DNA of 64,000 bases from a virus: IMG/VR virus record IMGVR_UViG_3300032102_000006. One strand, given 5' to 3'. The first letter of the stretch is position 1. Each line of letters starts with the position of its first letter. Under the pieces are notes generated by a model. That model saw only the letters and a program-made list of their open reading frames with translations, searched no databases and was not told where the DNA came from. The translations under genes and the position numbers were made by a program. This document shows positions 37,700 through 53,023 of the stretch, piece by piece.

Positions 37700-37776
37700 T
37701 GGTGCGCTAGACAGGAATCGAACCTGCTACACTCTGGTTTAGAATCAGCTGCCCTTACCTTACGGGCTACTAGCGC
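37700..37776 (-). tRNA. tRNA with CUA anticodon (putative amber suppressor)
   Basis: Acceptor GCGCTAG/CTAGCGC-A-CCA, D stem GCCC/GGGC, anticodon loop TT-CTA-AA on CTG/CAG stem, T arm GCAGG-TTCGATT-CCTGT. Confidence 0.8.
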
Positions 37777-39163: not shown

Positions 39164-40456
39164 ATGTCTAACTATCAACACCCCGACGACCCAAAATTAT
39201 TTAACTTGCACCAAACAATGCAGTATAACCCGCAGTCCCAGCCTGAGATTAGGGTCGCTGCTAGGTTTAGCACAGGAGGTAACCCTAGTGTAGGTGGTGG
39301 CGGCAACGTAAATGCCGCAACTGATGCGTTCGGAAGACTACGTGTCAGCAGCCCTTACACTATTTTCGACAGTCAGAACAGATATCGCCTAAATGACAAA
39401 TTCAGCTATGGTGCTAGCGGCGCAGGCGCCGCTACTTATTTGCCAAACGAAAGTAGCGTAAGATTAAGTTGCTCAGGTGAAGGCAGTGTCGTAGCCGAAT
39501 CTAAAAGAGTATTTGCCTATCAACCCGGCAAGAGTTTGTTAGTGTTTAATACTTTTGTTATGTCTGCTGGCACTGCCGGAGTTACTCAACGTGCAGGTTA
39601 TTTTAGCGCACAAAATGGGATTTATTTAGAAAAGTCAAATGGTCAGTTACGCATGTGCAAGCGAAGTTATATAACCGGGTCAGTCGTTGATACTGCTGTC
39701 GATCAATCACAATGGAATGTAGATAGATTAGATGGAACAGGACCAAGTGGTATAACACTAGACACTACTAAAGCACAGATTATGTTTGTTGATATCGAGT
39801 GGCTAGGTGTCGGCAGTGTTAGAACCGGGTTTGTTATAAATGGTAACTATTATATTGCACACATTTTTAATCATGCCAATTTAATAGACAGTGTTTATAT
39901 GACTACTGCTAGACTACCTATTAGGTACGAATTAATCAGCACAGGCGCTAGTGTTAGTATCAAACAGATTTGTAGCAGTGTTATTAGCGAAGGCGGCTAC
40001 GAGGGATTTAGCTGTACCGAAAGTGCCGGAACTGGAATCAATCAAAAGAGATTAGTAACTGCCGGTACTTATTACCCAATGGTCAGTATAAAATTAGATT
40101 CTAATAGACTAGACAGTATTGTTTTACCAAGACAAGTTGATATTTTAAGCCCAAGTGTCAATTACTATCGTTGGGTCTTATTGTTAAATCCTAGCTTAAC
40201 AGGAGCAACTTGGTCCGGTACTAGCACAACAGGAACAGTCAAATATGATACAGGTGCAACTGCTATAACCGGAGGTGTTGAGTTGCAAAGCGGTTATACT
40301 AGCAGTAGAGAAGTTGCAATGTTAAGTGCAGATGCTTTCCAGTGTCAATTAGGTCGCAGTGTTGCCGGTGTGAGTGATATAATCACTCTTGCTCTTACAT
40401 CAACTGCTAATAACGCTGATGTTATGGCACAGTTAGGCTGGCAGGAAATTGTATAA
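39164..40456 (+). CDS. Putative virion protein (beta-rich)
   Basis: 431 codons, Gly/Ser/Thr-rich, TAAATA promoter and SD upstream. Confidence 0.65.
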   Translation: MSNYQHPDDPKLFNLHQTMQYNPQSQPEIRVAARFSTGGNPSVGGGGNVNAATDAFGRLRVSSPYTIFDSQNRYRLNDKFSYGASGAGAATYLPNESSVRLSCSGEGSVVAESKRVFAYQPGKSLLVFNTFVMSAGTAGVTQRAGYFSAQNGIYLEKSNGQLRMCKRSYITGSVVDTAVDQSQWNVDRLDGTGPSGITLDTTKAQIMFVDIEWLGVGSVRTGFVINGNYYIAHIFNHANLIDSVYMTTARLPIRYELISTGASVSIKQICSSVISEGGYEGFSCTESAGTGINQKRLVTAGTYYPMVSIKLDSNRLDSIVLPRQVDILSPSVNYYRWVLLLNPSLTGATWSGTSTTGTVKYDTGATAITGGVELQSGYTSSREVAMLSADAFQCQLGRSVAGVSDIITLALTSTANNADVMAQLGWQEIV

Positions 40457-40481
40457 GAAAATAGGACCCGAAGGTCCTATT
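40457..40481. terminator. Terminator of tmRNA and convergent gene
   Basis: On - strand ATAGGAC-CTTCGG-GTCCTAT-TTTC. Confidence 0.85.
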
Positions 40482-40783
40482 GCTATTTTCTGTTTCGAGG
40501 TATAGTTACCCAAGTCAGCTTACGCTGCCAATTCGTATACGTCAGAGTTTGCGTTTACTTTGTTTTGCTTCTTCGACCGGGTTACCCCAATCCTAACGAG
40601 TTCTACATTCCCGAGCGATAAAATACTTACTTACGGCCCAATCGATTCCGGAGGTCCCCCATCAAAAGCATTATCTGGTCTATATCTGGCAACCAACCCT
40701 TAATTGTGATAATGCTTTTGGTGGAGGACAGGGGATTTGAACCCCTTTCTTGAACCACGTTCTTTATTTCACTTTACGCTGTT
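40482..40783 (-). ncRNA. ssrA: Circularly permuted (two-piece) tmRNA
   Basis: T arm and GTCCTCC-A-CCA (ends 40719) precede 5' strand GGGGGAC (starts 40660); G3-U70 pair; tag frame 40552-40520 ANSDVYELAA-stop. Confidence 0.92.
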
Positions 40784-40791
40784 AAAACTAT

Positions 40792-41217
40792 TTATGCTAA
40801 CTTTTGGCTCTTTACAATACGACGAGTTTCGTTTTCAATAGTGCGTTTCTTTTCAGTCTCGCGCTTGTCAAACTCTTTCTTACCCTTGGCAAGACCCATA
40901 GCTAACTTAAACTTTCCATTCTTATTATATACTCGCAAAGGCACAAGTGTCAAGCCTTTTTCTTGTGTTTGGCCAATCAAACGGCTGATTTCTCTACTGT
41001 GCAATAGCAGTTTGCGGCTACGCTGTTGTTCATTGTCACTTGATCCAATGCTGGCACCGATCAAGTAGATTGCTCCGTTCATAACCTTACAGTGCGAGCC
41101 AGCAATGTTGCAAGTCTTGGCTGCGATGGCTTTAACTTCCCAAGATTCTAGCACGAGCCCGCTCTCGTAGGTTTCGAGTATTTCGTAGTCGTAATGTGCC
41201 CGGCGATTTTCAATCAT
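40792..41217 (-). CDS. smpB: SsrA-binding protein SmpB
   Basis: NRRAHYDY, ESGLVL..WEVK, RKLLLH..EI, GLTLVPL, GKKEFDKR. Confidence 0.95.
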   Translation of the reverse strand: MIENRRAHYDYEILETYESGLVLESWEVKAIAAKTCNIAGSHCKVMNGAIYLIGASIGSSDNEQQRSRKLLLHSREISRLIGQTQEKGLTLVPLRVYNKNGKFKLAMGLAKGKKEFDKRETEKKRTIENETRRIVKSQKLA

Positions 41218-48072: not shown

Positions 48073-48393
48073 TTAAACTCTAAAACTACTTCCACATCCG
48101 CAACGATCTCGCTCATTGGGATTCTTAAATTCAAACCCTTCGTTCAAGCCATTTCGAACAAAGTCTATTGTCATACCTTGTAAGTATGGACAACTTTTTG
48201 GATCTACATATATTTCACAACCGTTGCACAAGATTTTCTCATCTCCGGGTTGTGCAGCATCTACATATTCTAACACATAAGCCAAGCCCGAGCAACCTGT
48301 TGTTTTAACGCCAACCCGTATGCCAATACCCGAACCTCTTCGGGTTATCATTGCTCGAATTTTTTTAACAGCGGCTTCAGTTAGAGTGATCAT
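48073..48393 (-). CDS. iscA: Fe-S cluster carrier IscA
   Basis: GCSGLAY, CGCGSSF. Confidence 0.95.
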   Translation of the reverse strand: MITLTEAAVKKIRAMITRRGSGIGIRVGVKTTGCSGLAYVLEYVDAAQPGDEKILCNGCEIYVDPKSCPYLQGMTIDFVRNGLNEGFEFKNPNERDRCGCGSSFRV

Positions 48394-48779
48394 TTTTCTT
48401 TTTATAATCCTCTACTGCTGCTTTAATCGCATCTTCTGCTAAAATACTACAGTGAATCTTAACAGGAGGTAATGCAAGTTCTTCTGCTATGGCAGAATTT
48501 TTAATACTTGTTGCTTGATCCAATGTCATTCCCTTGACTAATTCAGTAACTAGGCTAGAGCTAGCAATAGCACTGCCGCAGCCGTAAGTTTTAAAACGTG
48601 CATCTTCGATTATGCCTGTTTCTGGATTTACTTTTATTTGCAACTTCATTACATCGCCTAGTCTAGCCGCATGCCGGTGCACCGACTATGCCGGTGCCGA
48701 CATGCGGCTCATCCTTGACAAAAGATCCTACGTTCCGAGGTTGCTCATAATGATCTATAACTTTTTCGCTGTAAGCCAT
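48377..48779 (-). CDS. iscU: Fe-S scaffold IscU interrupted by a 10-nt insert (48656-48665); 130 aa if the insert is skipped
   Basis: MAYSEKVIDHY...GAPACG, then TAGACTAGGC, then DVMKLQIKV...YGCGSA...LPPVKIHC. Confidence 0.9.
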
Positions 48780-48829: not shown

Positions 48830-49369
48830 CTATTTTTGTCTGTTTTCTTCCCCCAGTATCCACCTTAGATTGCTCTTGCTACCTAATATATGCGGCGGTA
48901 TTCCTAACTCAAAACCCTGTTTATAAGGAACGATATGATCAAGCTGAAACTGATCTTTACGCTTTCCTGTGTTTAACGGTATCTCTCCATCTATTTTCAT
49001 TTGATAGCGAGAACGATACGTTGCTTTACGGACTTCTCTCTTGTATGCTGTAAATTCATCATCTACATAGGACTTTGGACGTAAATTATTTAATCTACCA
49101 TCTTTATTTGGATTATTTTCTTTCCATTTTTTGCTTTGTTTTTCATTTGGAAGACCTTTGTTCCATCCATGTCCTTTTAACAAGCCAGAAGTGTTTTGTT
49201 TAGATTTCTGTTCTTCAGTCAATTTTAACCCTTTATTCCAAGGATCAAACTCTCCCCTATTTAAAGGATTTTTACATTTCTGCGAACAAAAATCTATAAA
49301 TCTAGGCTTTGTAATAAAAGCCGAGCCGCAATAACTGCATTGTTTTGTCAGGCCATATTTTTCTTTCAT
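48830..49369 (-). mobile_element. HNH homing endonuclease with NUMOD3-like repeats (extends to 48779 if TAG is read through)
   Basis: PWNKG/GWNKG repeats, LDHIVP..SNL..EEN. Confidence 0.8.
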
Positions 49370-49411
49370 GCAGTTATTTATCATCTCGGCGCGCCTGCTT
49401 GTTAAAATCCT

Positions 49412-50443
49412 TTATAATACACAACTTTCGCAAACACCGTCATCTTCTTCTTGATCTTGTTTAACTGTGTTGAGATGGATGATATTTTCATCTTGTGCTA
49501 CTTTTGCACCTTGCTTGTTAATTAAACTATAGTAGAAAGTCTTTAATCCCCAGTGATGTGCTAGCATTAGGTTTTTAGCAATCAATGTTGTTGGTACTTT
49601 TTTATCTGCAAAATATGCAGGATTGTAAAATGTGTTAGTACTAATACTTTGATCTGTATATGCTGCAATAACTGCACTGGTCTTTAAGTACCCAATACAA
49701 TCACGCTGTTCCCACATTAGTTGGTAGTTTTTACGAACTCTGGCATTATTATACTCAGGAACGACTTGTGTAAAGCTACCGGCTTTTGATTCTTTTGTGC
49801 TAATCAAGCTCATTGGCATTTCAATACCGTTTGTGCTATTGATAACAACACTGCTAGACTCGACTGGTGCAACTGCCATTTGTGTAGCATTACGAACACC
49901 ATATTGTTTCATGTTGGCACGTAGTGTTTCCCAATCTAACTCCGGGGTAAAGTCTGTTAGCTCGTTGGCACCATCTGCACGTAACTCCCAGGGGAACACG
50001 CCTTGTCCATAACGTGTCTTACCACTATCAACACACGCGCCGCGTTCTTTAGCCAACTCAACCGACATTTCTGTTAGATAATATGCTTGGTGTTCCATCC
50101 ATGTCTTAACTTCTGCCAGTGCATCTCGTTCGCCGTACTGCATACCGCGTTTGGCGTGCCAGTAGGCCAAGTTAGTGACACCGATGCCAAGAGGGCGGAT
50201 TTCATCATTAGATAGTTTAGATTGAATACTTAAGAAATCTTGATAGTCAAGAATGTTATTAAGGCTACGATGCAGGATACGACAAGCACGGCGCATGTCC
50301 TCTGGATTGCGGAAAGCACCCCAGTTAATACTACCGAGAGTGCATAAACTAATCCTCGCGGCATCTTCATCTACCTCATAGTACTCATATTCATCATCCA
50401 GTTCTTCTGGAAGACGTTCTATTTCTTCATATAATTCATTCAT
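49412..50443 (-). CDS. nrdA: Ribonucleotide reductase alpha subunit, C-terminal piece
   Basis: ISLCTLG, RPLGIG, APVESSS, DQSIS, KTFYY, C-terminal CESC. Confidence 0.92.
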   Translation of the reverse strand: MNELYEEIERLPEELDDEYEYYEVDEDAARISLCTLGSINWGAFRNPEDMRRACRILHRSLNNILDYQDFLSIQSKLSNDEIRPLGIGVTNLAYWHAKRGMQYGERDALAEVKTWMEHQAYYLTEMSVELAKERGACVDSGKTRYGQGVFPWELRADGANELTDFTPELDWETLRANMKQYGVRNATQMAVAPVESSSVVINSTNGIEMPMSLISTKESKAGSFTQVVPEYNNARVRKNYQLMWEQRDCIGYLKTSAVIAAYTDQSISTNTFYNPAYFADKKVPTTLIAKNLMLAHHWGLKTFYYSLINKQGAKVAQDENIIHLNTVKQDQEEDDGVCESCVL

Positions 50444-50721
50444 TTGTAATCATCCTTAATCCATCCTAGTAAAGACCATTGCACCACATCGTATGTGTCT
50501 GGCCCAAGCCATTCGTTGTCGTGCGGTCCTGTAATTCTTAGTGGGTTATTTGGGTCATCCAATTTAACGCCGTGTTCCTTCAGAAATCCAATTAGTTCGT
50601 CTCGGTCATACAATACTTTTCGGTCAGCATATTCTTTTGCTTCTAATGTAATTGAATGTCTATCACTGAAATTAAATTCTTTTCTCCACATTCCTATATC
50701 ACGAGGATAAAATGTAATCAT
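50440..50721 (-). CDS. Hypothetical protein inside the nrdA split
   Basis: ATGA overlaps on both sides. Confidence 0.7.
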   Translation of the reverse strand: MITFYPRDIGMWRKEFNFSDRHSITLEAKEYADRKVLYDRDELIGFLKEHGVKLDDPNNPLRITGPHDNEWLGPDTYDVVQWSLLGWIKDDYK

Positions 50722-51488
50722 ATTCTTTTTCCATATTTCGTAATCAAAAAATAACTTTTTCCTGTTGCTTCTTTTGCTTCTGCGATACTACTATAAACAA
50801 CACCTTCGTATTCAATCTTTACTGCTTCGTGATGTTTTCCGCCCTTTATGGCCAAATCTTTTAGTTGTTGACTTCTTTCCTCTTTAGTCATAAACACATA
50901 TTCTTTGTGTTCATATTCAACATCTCTTTTATTGGTTAACTTTTTACATTTATAACCTTTATACATACTCTTCTTGCCACGGGCCACGGCGCTCATAGCA
51001 CTGGCATTTAGTTTATGTTGACGACAAAATTCAAGCATATTAGTGATAGTCAAAACTTCGTTAGCAGGGGTAATAACTTCCCACTCGTCGGCTAATTTAA
51101 GTTTTTGCTCATCCTTCATTGCCTTACCTTTGTTGTGTGTTACTAAGTCTCCGGAAGCAAATCTCTTTTTCTTAGTAGCAGATATTTTAGGACCATTGCC
51201 CGCTGCACCGCCGCCACCTGCGTTGGGTGAGATATTATAGTAGAGAGTACTTTTGGCACAATCTCTTTCGTCCAAATAATATTGCTCTCTAATCAAAATA
51301 TCTTCTTCCTTTTCAACATATTCTACTATTACTCTATCAAAATTTTCAATACCATATTTGTTCTTGGCATTTTCAAATCTTTTTCCGCTGCCAGTATAAC
51401 CATCATTTATAGTTCCTTTATGTGAACCCAAATACTTCATACCGTCTAACTTATTTGTCCATTCATATATAAAACCCGAGTAGTTCAT
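50718..51488 (-). mobile_element. GIY-YIG (Seg-like) homing endonuclease inserted in nrdA
   Basis: GFIY...KYLG, Y.GSG, YG..NF, RE, YYN; NUMOD-like C-terminal modules. Confidence 0.9.
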
Positions 51489-51544
51489 TTGTGCCTCCTG
51501 TACATCTATTTATCATTACTCTGTACTTTAGGCACATTTAATTA

Positions 51545-53023
51545 TTATAACTTCTTCAATTTTACAAACTGCTCCGGTTTGTTCATTAAGAAATCACTTG
51601 CTTTGTTTTTGCGGACTTTAATTAGTTTTTTCTTAGTTGTTCCCATTGCAACTGTCGGAAGCAAAATCTCCAGACACAAATTCGATTGATAAATTGTATG
51701 GTATTCAGGGTCGAACGGACCTTGATTCATCACGTTGTCAATGAATACTAGATATATGCGTCCAGTGTCTGTACGTTCTTTAAGTATGCCGCCTTTGAAT
51801 ACTTCTTCAGCTGACATTACTTTTTTACGTAGGTCTGTACGCTTTTCATACAGTTCATAAAGTTCGTTGAACTTGTCCGTATTTGAATAGAACGCTTCGT
51901 AGAGGTCGGGAACTTCATTAGGGTCAAAGAAGGTAATATTTTCTTTGTTCTTGAGTCTCCTCCAGAAAAACGCAGAAAGCACAACACCATAATCCATGTG
52001 GCGGACACGAGTTTCGTCTGTTCCTTGGTTGTTCTTGAGAACAATAAGGTCATCGAATTGATGATGCCAGATGGGATAGAAAACCGTAGCACTAGCATTA
52101 CGAATACCTCCTTGACTGCAACTGCGTAGATCACCAAACCATTTCTTTAAGAATGGTACCATACCAGTGTGCATAATTTCGCCGCCCCTAATAGGACTTC
52201 CTAGACTGCGCAAGCGACCAATCTCTAAGCCAATGCCAGCACGTTTGCTAGCATACTTGGCCATCATTTCGCCACTAGCAAATATACTATCCAAATCATC
52301 ATCGCTCCTGATAAGCACACAACTACTAAATTGTTTTGTCGGAGTGCCAAGACCAGCAAGAACAGGTGTAGCAAGAGTAAAGAGCCCATCACTAGAAGCA
52401 TTGTAGTATTCCTTAATCAATCTCATACGAGCGCTATTAGGCTCTTCTTTATGCATAACTGTTGCTGCCGCAACCATATAACGGATCTGCGGTGTTTCAT
52501 AAATTTCTTTTGTAGCACGATTGCGAACTAGATATTTTTCAATTAACTGTTCGATAGCTGCATAACTATACTGTTCATCTTTCTCATGATCCAGCATGTC
52601 ATTCATCTTATTCCAGTCTGCTTCTGTATACCATTCCAGTAGTTCAGGAGTGTATAAACCAACCGCTACGTTCTTTTTTACTATTTCAAAAATATGCGGT
52701 ACTTGGTAGTCACCGTACACATCTTTTCGTAGCATGCTTAATCGCTGCTTTCCTGCTACGTATTGATAATTTGTATGTCCTATTTCTGGATTAGATTCTA
52801 CGTCTATTAAATTTACAATTGCACGTAGAGTAATTTCGTCAATTTCTCTTGTAGTAATTCCATCAAAGAAATGAGGTTGAGCTTTGATTTCAATCATGCT
52901 TTGGCTAACATCTGCAATACCAGTGCATACTTTAGAAATCTGAGCTTGCCACTTTTCAATTTGCAATAATTCATGCTCTCCGCTACGTTTGAGCACTGTG
53001 ATAGGTTTCCCCGACATTATCAT
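51545..53023 (-). CDS. nrdA: Ribonucleotide reductase alpha subunit, N-terminal piece
   Basis: ATP cone, ATP..AG, FSSC, QGGIR, QSNLCLEI. Confidence 0.92.
   Translation of the reverse strand: MIMSGKPITVLKRSGEHELLQIEKWQAQISKVCTGIADVSQSMIEIKAQPHFFDGITTREIDEITLRAIVNLIDVESNPEIGHTNYQYVAGKQRLSMLRKDVYGDYQVPHIFEIVKKNVAVGLYTPELLEWYTEADWNKMNDMLDHEKDEQYSYAAIEQLIEKYLVRNRATKEIYETPQIRYMVAAATVMHKEEPNSARMRLIKEYYNASSDGLFTLATPVLAGLGTPTKQFSSCVLIRSDDDLDSIFASGEMMAKYASKRAGIGLEIGRLRSLGSPIRGGEIMHTGMVPFLKKWFGDLRSCSQGGIRNASATVFYPIWHHQFDDLIVLKNNQGTDETRVRHMDYGVVLSAFFWRRLKNKENITFFDPNEVPDLYEAFYSNTDKFNELYELYEKRTDLRKKVMSAEEVFKGGILKERTDTGRIYLVFIDNVMNQGPFDPEYHTIYQSNLCLEILLPTVAMGTTKKKLIKVRKNKASDFLMNKPEQFVKLKKL

Follow-up and report, generated by a model that had tools for sequence, protein, structure and literature searches.

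Introduction

Natural translational bypassing has so far been described for gene 60 of bacteriophage T4 and its homologs, for yeast mitochondrial inserts and for a few Streptomyces phage candidates. Here we analyze an interrupted iscU gene, encoding the scaffold protein for iron-sulfur (Fe-S) clusters, on the minus strand of a 64,000-nucleotide (nt) stretch of viral DNA (IMG/VR record IMGVR_UViG_3300032102_000006), which as a whole is called the window below. We suggest that the 10-nt insert between the Gly38 and Asp39 codons of this gene is most likely a gap that stays untranslated in a programmed translational bypass of short range, or "stop-hop".

The bypass of T4 gene 60 is carried by an element containing the gene of the HNH homing endonuclease MobA (Bonocora et al. 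2011, as cited in bioRxiv 10.1101/2022.08.31.505936). One edge of the mobA/gene 60 element lies at or just past the landing codon, and the insert probably protects the element from its own nuclease; in the gene 60 family the pair of take-off and landing codons is always readable by a single transfer RNA (tRNA), and a few homologs carry a rare codon in place of the stop (bioRxiv 10.1101/2022.08.31.505936). The 5' stem-loop of gene 60 has been proposed to drive the forward movement (bioRxiv 10.1101/2024.12.09.627546; PMC5462505).

Shorter bypasses are also on record. With signals of the Streptomyces phage Hau3, mass spectrometry in E. coli demonstrated a 10-nt bypass that starts from a Gly codon while UAA occupies the ribosomal A site (PMC10732093). 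In synthetic constructs, stop-hops over short distances are functional (PMC5009743), and in those of E. coli 9 nt encode a single residue (Weiss et al. 1987 and subsequent studies, as summarized in PMC5009743). The 2016 review states that a natural occurrence of in-frame stop-hops was not known (PMC5009743). Our full-text literature search yielded no paper in which iscU or NifU is connected with bypassing.

Results

The interrupted iscU gene of the window

The minus-strand messenger RNA (mRNA) of the window iscU gene reads GCA CCG GCA TGC GGC TAG ACT AGG CGA TGT AAT GAA G around the interruption (Table 1). The N-terminal piece of 38 amino acids (aa) matches positions 1-35 of the Pfam NifU_N profile (expect value, E, 2e-9) and the C-terminal piece of 92 aa matches positions 36-125 (E 8e-37); the two pieces jointly span positions 1-125 of 127. 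Since the first match ends at position 35 and the second starts at position 36, exactly 10 nt are extra. When the insert is skipped, the joined product is a 130-aa IscU with the NifU_N domain, the three Cys ligands of an Fe-S scaffold, namely Cys37, Cys63 (KTYGCGSA) and Cys106 (IHCS), as well as Asp39 and the LPPVK motif.

A hairpin lies directly 5' of the insert. Folding of the 45 nt from 48709 to 48665 gives a 20-bp (base pair) hairpin of -35 kcal/mol, compared with a mean of -17.3 kcal/mol in shuffled sequences (z -6.7, 0/200 as stable), and z is -5.1 in an 86-nt context. These limits take in one A-U pair beyond the hairpin 48666-48708.

A preliminary description of the window, made from its letters, had reported a GGC codon followed at once by UAG, with an identical GGC 10 nt further on, and this layout was found correct base by base. 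The 130-aa IscU that it had derived by skipping 10 nt, with ligands and LPPVK intact, is borne out by the NifU_N matches of both pieces, and its hairpin of about 20 bp was recovered by folding. We also agree with its statement that amber read-through cannot repair the frame, the insert being 10 nt long.

Inserts at one junction in 64 iscU genes

Further inserts at Gly38|Asp39 were collected in three samples and one metagenome scan. Among the best 80 IMG/VR iscU loci, five have 7- or 9-nt inserts at this junction, and a pattern scan forcing GGN GAY GTN ATGA gave at least about 45 further interrupted loci. The third sample, in which the junction was unconstrained, consisted of loci retrieved via homologs of the 184-aa protein encoded upstream of iscU (alignment A1); these loci show the same layout as those of the pattern scan. 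The metagenome scan for the 10-nt class yielded at least two more inserts (L308, GGC TGAATTA GGT; L385, GGC TGACCCA GGT), with gap sequence unlike the window's. After duplicate removal there are 64 distinct interrupted iscU genes on viral contigs, window included, and at least 66 with the metagenomes.

All 64 inserts sit at the one junction, Gly38|Asp39. Their lengths are 4 nt (1 gene), 6 nt (1), 7 nt (32), 8 nt (15), 9 nt (14) and 10 nt (1, the window). A take-off GGN codon and a landing GGN codon directly 5' of GAY (Asp39) are found in 64/64, and a stop immediately 3' of the take-off codon in 63/64, with TGA, TAG and TAA all represented. The spacers of 0-4 nt are free to vary (none, C, G, A, CA, CT, CC, CG, TT, AAA, ATA, CCT, CTG, TTA and ACTA). 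The nucleotide after the stop is C in 38/63, as in the prfB context UGA C, and C after a stop is a weak termination context. The pair of take-off and landing codons is identical or GGT/GGC in 39/64; the window has GGC/GGC.

Frame offsets of 0, +1 and +2 are all present among the 64 interrupted genes, and therefore a Gly-to-Gly hop alone yields the canonical ACG-DV in every class. Past the junction, Asp39 is encoded by GAT or GAC and Val40 by GTA, GTC, GTT or GTG, that is, with synonymous changes alone. Residue 41 is Met or Leu. Translational restart at Met41 was considered and is ruled out where residue 41 is Leu, encoded by CTT in several interrupted genes.

The stop-less exception is locus L270, with a 4-nt insert (GGT A GGC). 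Its A-site codon is AGG, a rare codon in many bacteria. At L270:3216-3222 (also in L271) a TAG overlaps in another frame, and the hairpin and the upstream motif described below are both there. Two readings fit L270, a hop of the "hungry codon" type or a gene copy that was broken recently. An IscU protein tree built on 142 rows and 126 columns resolved too little for the origins of the inserts to be counted; its clustering statistics alone were used, and no conclusion was drawn from it.

A hairpin tied to the inserts

The hairpin was compared across the family by the minimum free energy (MFE) of a 48-nt stretch that has the take-off codon at its 3' end. The mean MFE is -24.8 kcal/mol in the interrupted genes with the nuclease upstream (n=53) and -25.5 kcal/mol in those where the nuclease was not found (n=11), compared with -9.8 kcal/mol in uninterrupted genes with the nuclease upstream (n=15) and -13.0 kcal/mol in the other uninterrupted genes (n=71). 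The weakest interrupted gene (-19.7) and the strongest nuclease-adjacent uninterrupted gene (-15.4) leave the two ranges apart. The hairpin thus occurs in every interrupted gene and in none of the close uninterrupted ones.

Covariation was analyzed in 37 distinct sequences (alignment A2). The 10-bp core stem joins codons 25-28 with Pro35, Ala36, Cys37 and the first G of Gly38, and it is paired at every position in 37/37 sequences. The third base of His/Gln26 pairs with the third base of Ala36 as AU (19), CG (14) or UA (4), and the third base of Val27 with that of Pro35 as UA (21), CG (8), UG (4), GC (2) or GU (2). The covariation score of the stem is 0.211 against 0.112 in shuffles, none of 500 of which attains 0.211, and the proposed register pairs 86% of cells compared with 31-42% in slid registers. 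The stem also has an invariant U-G pair on the sense strand, which would be an A-C mismatch on the opposite strand; this points to a structure of RNA and not of DNA. We infer a stimulatory role for this hairpin.

In the window alone (48656-48722, minus strand), UUGUC..AG located 5' of the upstream motif is able to base-pair with the gap plus landing codon (ACUAGGCGA), and this extension of the hairpin has an MFE of -42 kcal/mol over 86 nt. Such pairing was rejected as a family feature, as it is unconserved and exceeds a probability of 0.5 in 13/64 only.

An AGGAG-like motif at a fixed distance

An AGGAG-like motif, resembling a Shine-Dalgarno (SD) sequence, is located next to the stem on its 5' side. 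Counted back from the last nucleotide of the take-off codon, it begins at 50, 51 or, in four genes, 54 nt. It is found at this fixed place in 64/64 interrupted genes and in 8/86 uninterrupted ones, and the energy of its duplex with the anti-SD sequence is about -9.6 kcal/mol in interrupted genes vs -3.7 or -4.9 kcal/mol in uninterrupted genes. The motif is encoded across differing peptides, as Lys-Glu (AAG GAG), Lys-Gly (AAA GGA) or Glu-Glu (GAG GAG). Interrupted genes use GAG 50 times and GAA 4 times at the motif, and all their Gly codons there are GGA (17/17), whereas uninterrupted genes have GAA 13 times and GAG twice at the same site, and none of their eight Gly codons is GGA. Synonymous codon choice maintains the motif.

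The possibility that the position of the motif compensates the insert length was tested and rejected, the position being unchanged with length. The idea that a split SD sequence sets the landing site is speculative.

Upkeep of both parts of the interrupted genes

No stop occurs inside the N part (codons 1-38) in any of the 64 genes. The C part runs 86-104 codons to its normal stop in 57/64; of the remaining C parts, one has 428 codons owing to an intein, five end with their locus and one is short. Further damage is seen in at most 2/64 C parts. The median pairwise ratio of nonsynonymous to synonymous substitution rates (dN/dS) is 0.23 in the N part and 0.075 in the C part, with dS saturated. 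A stronger argument than these ratios is that the hairpin, the motif, the stop and the landing codon were all retained while the adjacent nucleases diverged (54-74% identical to the window's), which is understandable only where translation has to reach the C part.

The preliminary description had viewed the insert as a compact bypass element in a gene that is not dead, pointing to two intact halves and an intact iscA, and had proposed an alignment of iscU from related phages. Inserts at the same codon, flanking Gly codons and hairpin covariation were found across the 64 genes; the halves are as intact as given above, and iscA in the window is whole. The same-codon inserts, the covariation, the contrast in hairpin energy and the intact halves support its view.

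An intein of about 338 aa was detected in several iscU genes at the ligand Cys63 (KTYG|CLTSNAPV...VGSHN|CGSAIASS; L258:3224-4510, L262 and L280-L284). L258 and L262 combine it with an 8-nt insert, and here one small gene hosts a nuclease neighbour, a bypass insert and an intein.

Table 1. Features of the iscU region in the window (positions in the 64,000-nt stretch).
Feature	Position	Strand	Remarks
Putative HNH-type homing (possibly nicking) endonuclease, 184-aa open reading frame	48830..49384	-	ends ~50 nt before the iscU start
iscU codons 1-38 (MAYSEK...GAPACG)	48666..48779	-	last codon is the take-off Gly; NifU_N positions 1-35
SD-like AAGGA	48712..48716	-	next to the hairpin on its 5' side; weaker than the family consensus AAGGAG/AAAGGAG
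RNA hairpin (predicted)	48666..48708	-	3' arm is Pro35-Ala36-Cys37 and take-off Gly codons; folding, covariation
Putative take-off codon GGC (Gly38)	48668-48666	-	read from sequence; family pattern agrees
UAG stop	48665-48663	-	predicted A-site codon at take-off; stop here in 63/64
Insert TAGACTAGGC, probably untranslated	48665-48656	-	10 nt: stop, 4-nt spacer, landing codon
Putative landing codon GGC	48658-48656	-	abuts Asp39; GGN here in 64/64
Asp39 codon GAT	48655-48653	-	read from sequence
iscU codons 39-130 and stop (DVMKLQ...KTYGCGSA...LPPVKIHCS...)	48377..48655	-	NifU_N positions 36-125
iscA, 106 aa, intact	48073..48393	-	overlaps the iscU end; Fe-S_biosyn, E 8e-22
nrdB	48070-46970	-	downstream of iscA

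The adjoining nuclease gene and a mobile cassette

The minus-strand gene order in the window is split nrdA, the 184-aa open reading frame (ORF), iscU, iscA, nrdB and a glutaredoxin gene. A near-identity DNA search of the phage collection gave no match to this region, and there is no close relative among the deposited phages.

The 184-aa ORF matches PHROG 5104 (E 1e-9) and PHROG 1271, "HNH endonuclease" (E 1.5e-4). Pfam HNH matches were obtained in 13/19 homologs, all of them weak and below the cut-off. The family shares a conserved Cys4 N-terminal region, WNKG repeats and an invariant D149-H150...N172...N181. The C-terminal domain was modelled with a predicted local distance difference test (pLDDT) score above 90; the closest structural matches, both weak, are two HNH nicking enzymes, that of Gme (4h9d, Z 4.9) and that of phage GVE2 (5h0o, Z 4.1), and Foldseek with the nuclease model against the PDB found nothing significant (E ~1). 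Compared with hypothetical proteins of T4-type phages, the best match has 37% identity over 41% of the length.

A nuclease homolog lies at a constant distance upstream in 53/64 interrupted iscU genes. In the iscU-based sample, the nuclease is beside 3/5 interrupted and about 1/75 uninterrupted genes. Two loci, L190 and L220, are 0.93-1.0 identical from -743 to -23, 0.8 at +17 and 0.45-0.75 beyond; their left flank has also diverged, with 45-80% identity on both sides, and the right edge is just past the insert. The pairs L089/L153, L164/L181 and L086/L244 likewise have a near-identical block between diverged flanks, and the reverse pattern was found in no locus pair. The empty site is found in phages with an NrdB 80-86% identical to the window's. 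In one of these loci, L070, an uninterrupted iscU begins 18 nt past nrdA, and the nuclease, the hairpin and the motif are all absent.

The blocks of identity, which run from before the nuclease to past the insert, and the existence of an empty site show one mobile mosaic cassette of about 770 bp, made up of the nuclease gene, a cassette-borne version of codons 1-38 of iscU, and the insert. As is typical of a free-standing homing endonuclease, there is presence/absence polymorphism (L070 compared with the window) and a mosaic tract resembling co-conversion (the identity blocks). The insert most likely destroys the nuclease target in the conserved DNA encoding ACGDVM, which would confer self-immunity.

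Uninterrupted iscU genes with an adjacent nuclease were found at L211, L214, L217, L218, L223-L227, L238-L243, L245, L247-L251 and L274-L276. Many of them have substitutions at the junction (Ala36Ser, Val40Leu and Met41Leu), and they are without hairpin and motif. These substitutions may be an alternative route to nuclease immunity.

Other mobile and RNA genes are present in the window. Its nrdA is split (49412-53023, minus strand) into an N part (53023-51545; ATP-cone and barrel-domain positions 1-219) and a C part (50443-49412; barrel positions 220-522), and the interval between them contains a gene of the GIY-YIG type of homing endonuclease (51488-50718) together with an ORF of 93 aa (50721-50440). 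This arrangement resembles the mobE-split nrdA of phage Aeh1 (bioRxiv 10.1101/2022.08.31.505936).

We also detected a tRNA gene with the anticodon CUA, an amber suppressor, at 37700-37776 (minus strand), which ARAGORN reports as "tRNA-Pyl" and which has an Rfam tRNA score of 50.9 bits and an encoded CCA. General reassignment of TAG in the window was considered, but no sign of it was seen: ORFs gain no more length when TAG is taken as sense than when TGA is, and there are two TAG-joined ORF pairs only. A phage-encoded permuted transfer-messenger RNA (tmRNA) is located at 40429-40811 (minus strand; Rfam tmRNA_permuted 74.6 bits at 40520-40780; tag ANSDVYELAA by ARAGORN).

Discussion

A predicted hop from Gly38 to the second Gly codon

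According to our proposal, the ribosome would translate codons 1-38 and then pause, its P site occupied by peptidyl-tRNA(Gly) paired with GGC and its A site by UAG; slow termination would leave time for the codon-anticodon pairing to open. The tRNA would then unpair, the mRNA would slide by 10 nt, the tRNA would re-pair with the second GGC and decoding would restart at Asp39, resulting in the normal 130-aa IscU. The insert would break the nuclease target and the hop would keep IscU made.

The selected stem has at least 10 bp in the family and 20 bp in the window, and its 3' arm is the last ~10 nt up to the start of the take-off codon. At take-off, this 3' arm (about -9 to +1) would be kept unpaired inside the ribosome, with the 5' arm and the apical stem-loop outside. 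Zipping of the lower stem may pull the mRNA along as far as the next GGN that is able to pair. By pairing with the anti-SD sequence, the AGGAG-like motif may fix the 5' arm where the mRNA leaves the ribosome, or it may help to position the landing. The more far-reaching idea is that of a natural, efficient minimal module, in which a hairpin spring, containing the take-off codon and anchored by the anti-SD sequence, pulls the mRNA over 4-10 nt after a stop has stalled the ribosome; homing cassettes would carry the module and could so disrupt their own target harmlessly, within an essential and highly conserved coding sequence. We give this idea an even chance of being right.

Several points weigh against a programmed bypass. 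We infer the hop itself from sequence alone. Unstimulated stop-hops are inefficient. The window motif AAGGA is weak and at the low end of the family range, no structure located 3' of the landing site turned up that is specific to interrupted genes, and no nascent-peptide signal was recognised, the N-terminal peptide being ordinary IscU-like besides the residues fixed by the hairpin and the motif. In 25/64 genes the take-off and landing codons span different tRNA(Gly) decoding boxes (GGT to GGA in 17, GGA to GGT or GGC in 8). The 7- and 10-nt classes alone could be restored by a +1 frameshift with 2-3 residues added. The tRNA(CUA) of the window would compete at UAG, send ribosomes into a dead frame and lower the yield. 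Fifteen nuclease-adjacent iscU genes are without an insert, so the nuclease does not need it. Finally, the cassette is mobile, so some of the purifying selection on the C part may predate its invasion.

Other explanations of the insert

The insert might be a mere immunity scar, with iscU dead or expressed as two polypeptides, a 38-aa peptide and a restarted C fragment, and with no hop taking place. The insert does travel with a homing-type nuclease, GGN-GAY creates an SD-like GGAGA beside Met41 in many members, and the conservation of the C part could in part predate the arrival of the cassette. A scar, however, would not select for a covarying hairpin, a motif kept at synonymous sites, a zero-frame stop and a landing GGN across diverged cassettes, nor does it fit with the changes at Asp39 and Val40 being synonymous only. 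The members with Leu41 (CTT) are without a nearby in-frame start, further damage is absent from the N parts (0/64) and almost so from the C parts, and two polypeptides would leave Cys37 on a separate chain from Cys63 and Cys106. We regard a scar as quite unlikely.

Conventional recoding, specific to each length class, would make an IscU with 1-3 extra loop residues, by a +1 frameshift in the 4-, 7- and 10-nt classes (ACG-RLG-DVMK in the window), a +2 or -1 shift in the 8-nt class and read-through in the 6- and 9-nt classes. The arithmetic agrees with this, since 10 is 9+1 and 7 is 6+1 and a +1 shift at GGC-U restores the frame; the C after the stop recalls the UGA-C of prfB, and the window tRNA(CUA) could read UAG in the in-frame classes. 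Three unrelated mechanisms would nevertheless be needed in one family with a common hairpin and motif, and the in-frame classes with TGA and TAA would require other suppressors. Re-pairing of GGN after a shift by +1 or -1 is impossible (GGC-U to GCU), and the SD-like motif is 44-48 nt upstream of the shift site, not at a spacing like that of prfB, where the SD sequence is 6 nt 5' of UGA (PMC10732093). The invariant GGN before Asp39 is unexplained unless each insertion peptide must end in Gly, and the added residues would separate the cluster ligand Cys37 from Asp39. A prfB-type +1 frameshift in particular fails on re-pairing, on SD spacing and on the incompatible 6-, 8- and 9-nt classes. Recoding of this kind seems to us very unlikely.

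Removal of the 10 nt from the RNA before translation, whether as a tiny intron or in an editing or processing step that the hairpin guides, would be consistent with a conserved hairpin that ends exactly at the insert. To our knowledge, there is no mechanism that excises 4-10 nt. Rfam gave no match in the region, and the conserved features are translational (matched codons, zero-frame stop, SD-like motif) while the spacer is unconserved, which makes such removal most improbable. A sequencing or assembly artefact in the window, to which the lack of an IMG/VR match to its exact junction might point, is practically negligible in view of 65 other distinct versions of the same architecture from many independent metagenomes, two of them with 10 nt, and of the presence in the window of all the co-selected elements.

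Comparison with described bypass systems

The proposed iscU bypass resembles that of gene 60 in its Gly codons for take-off and landing, in the stop (in few cases a rare codon) in the A site, in mRNA pairing 5' of the ribosome as the proposed driver and in the involvement of an SD-like element. In both, the bypass insert shares one mobile cassette with a nuclease gene, that of an HNH enzyme in the T4 element and of a putative one here; the cassette carries a version of the coding sequence next to it and has an edge at or shortly past the landing codon, and its insert probably protects it from its own nuclease. Here, however, the gene is iscU and not a topoisomerase subunit gene, and the cassettes are without sequence homology. 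The gap of 4-10 nt is short compared with 50 nt in gene 60 (20 nt in Aeromonas phages). The iscU take-off codon is at the 3' base of the hairpin, unlike that of gene 60, which is in the 5' side of the take-off stem-loop; therefore neither an A-site stem-loop nor a barrier to forward slippage of that kind is possible in iscU. The SD-like motif is about 45 nt 5' of the iscU take-off codon and outside the gap, whereas in gene 60 it is 6 nt before the landing codon. A nascent-peptide signal is another feature of gene 60 without a recognised counterpart in iscU, and 39% of the iscU codon pairs cross tRNA(Gly) boxes. The iscU cassette is an analogue, rather than a homologous member, of the T4 mobA/gene 60 element.

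The terminase genes of the Streptomyces phage Hau3 and related prophages, candidates for bypassing, share with iscU the gap lengths of 10 and 7 nt, a Gly take-off codon and a slow A-site codon (PMC10732093; PMC5009743). A stem-loop and an internal SD sequence 5' of the short gap have been proposed there as signals (PMC10732093). In Hau3, a rare sense codon, UUA, senses the host state, whereas the iscU family uses all three stops. Three such genes are known, compared with at least 66 distinct iscU versions, which represent another gene and another host phylum, and neither covariation nor a homing nuclease or mobile cassette is reported for the Streptomyces genes.

In synthetic stop-hops, as proposed for iscU, the peptidyl-tRNA quits a codon next to a stop and re-pairs a few nt on, and the 6- and 9-nt iscU classes have the same form. 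Those hops are engineered, of low efficiency and without dedicated signals, whereas the iscU inserts are natural and conserved and come with selected mRNA elements. The "byp" elements of Magnusiomyces mitochondria are similar as many short inserts made harmless by bypassing (PMC5009743). They differ in being 27-55 nt long, mobile, spread over many genes and largely context-independent, and in relying on an unassigned A-site codon and relaxed mitochondrial decoding (PMC5009743).

Significance

Beyond the preliminary description, the analysis adds the upstream AGGAG-like motif, the adjoining putative HNH gene and the mobile-cassette nature of the unit. The iscU signal would be a much simpler one, in which a hairpin on the 5' side and an SD-like motif are combined with a stop and a matched codon. 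Dozens of diverged natural variants amount to a mutational series that spans gap lengths from 4 to 10 nt, all three stops, five pairings of codons and compensatory changes in the stem, and refolding of the mRNA behind the ribosome as the driver of sliding is directly testable with a 60-nt element. The cassette would be a second, independent example of self-immunity through a bypass insert that accompanies a homing nuclease.

Gene-calling programs break such genes up or drop them, and the Fe-S metabolism genes of phages, perhaps others as well, are under-annotated for this reason. If the idea of a minimal bypass module is right, the interrupted iscU genes would be the first natural stop-hop family and would represent a general strategy that may occur in other genes.

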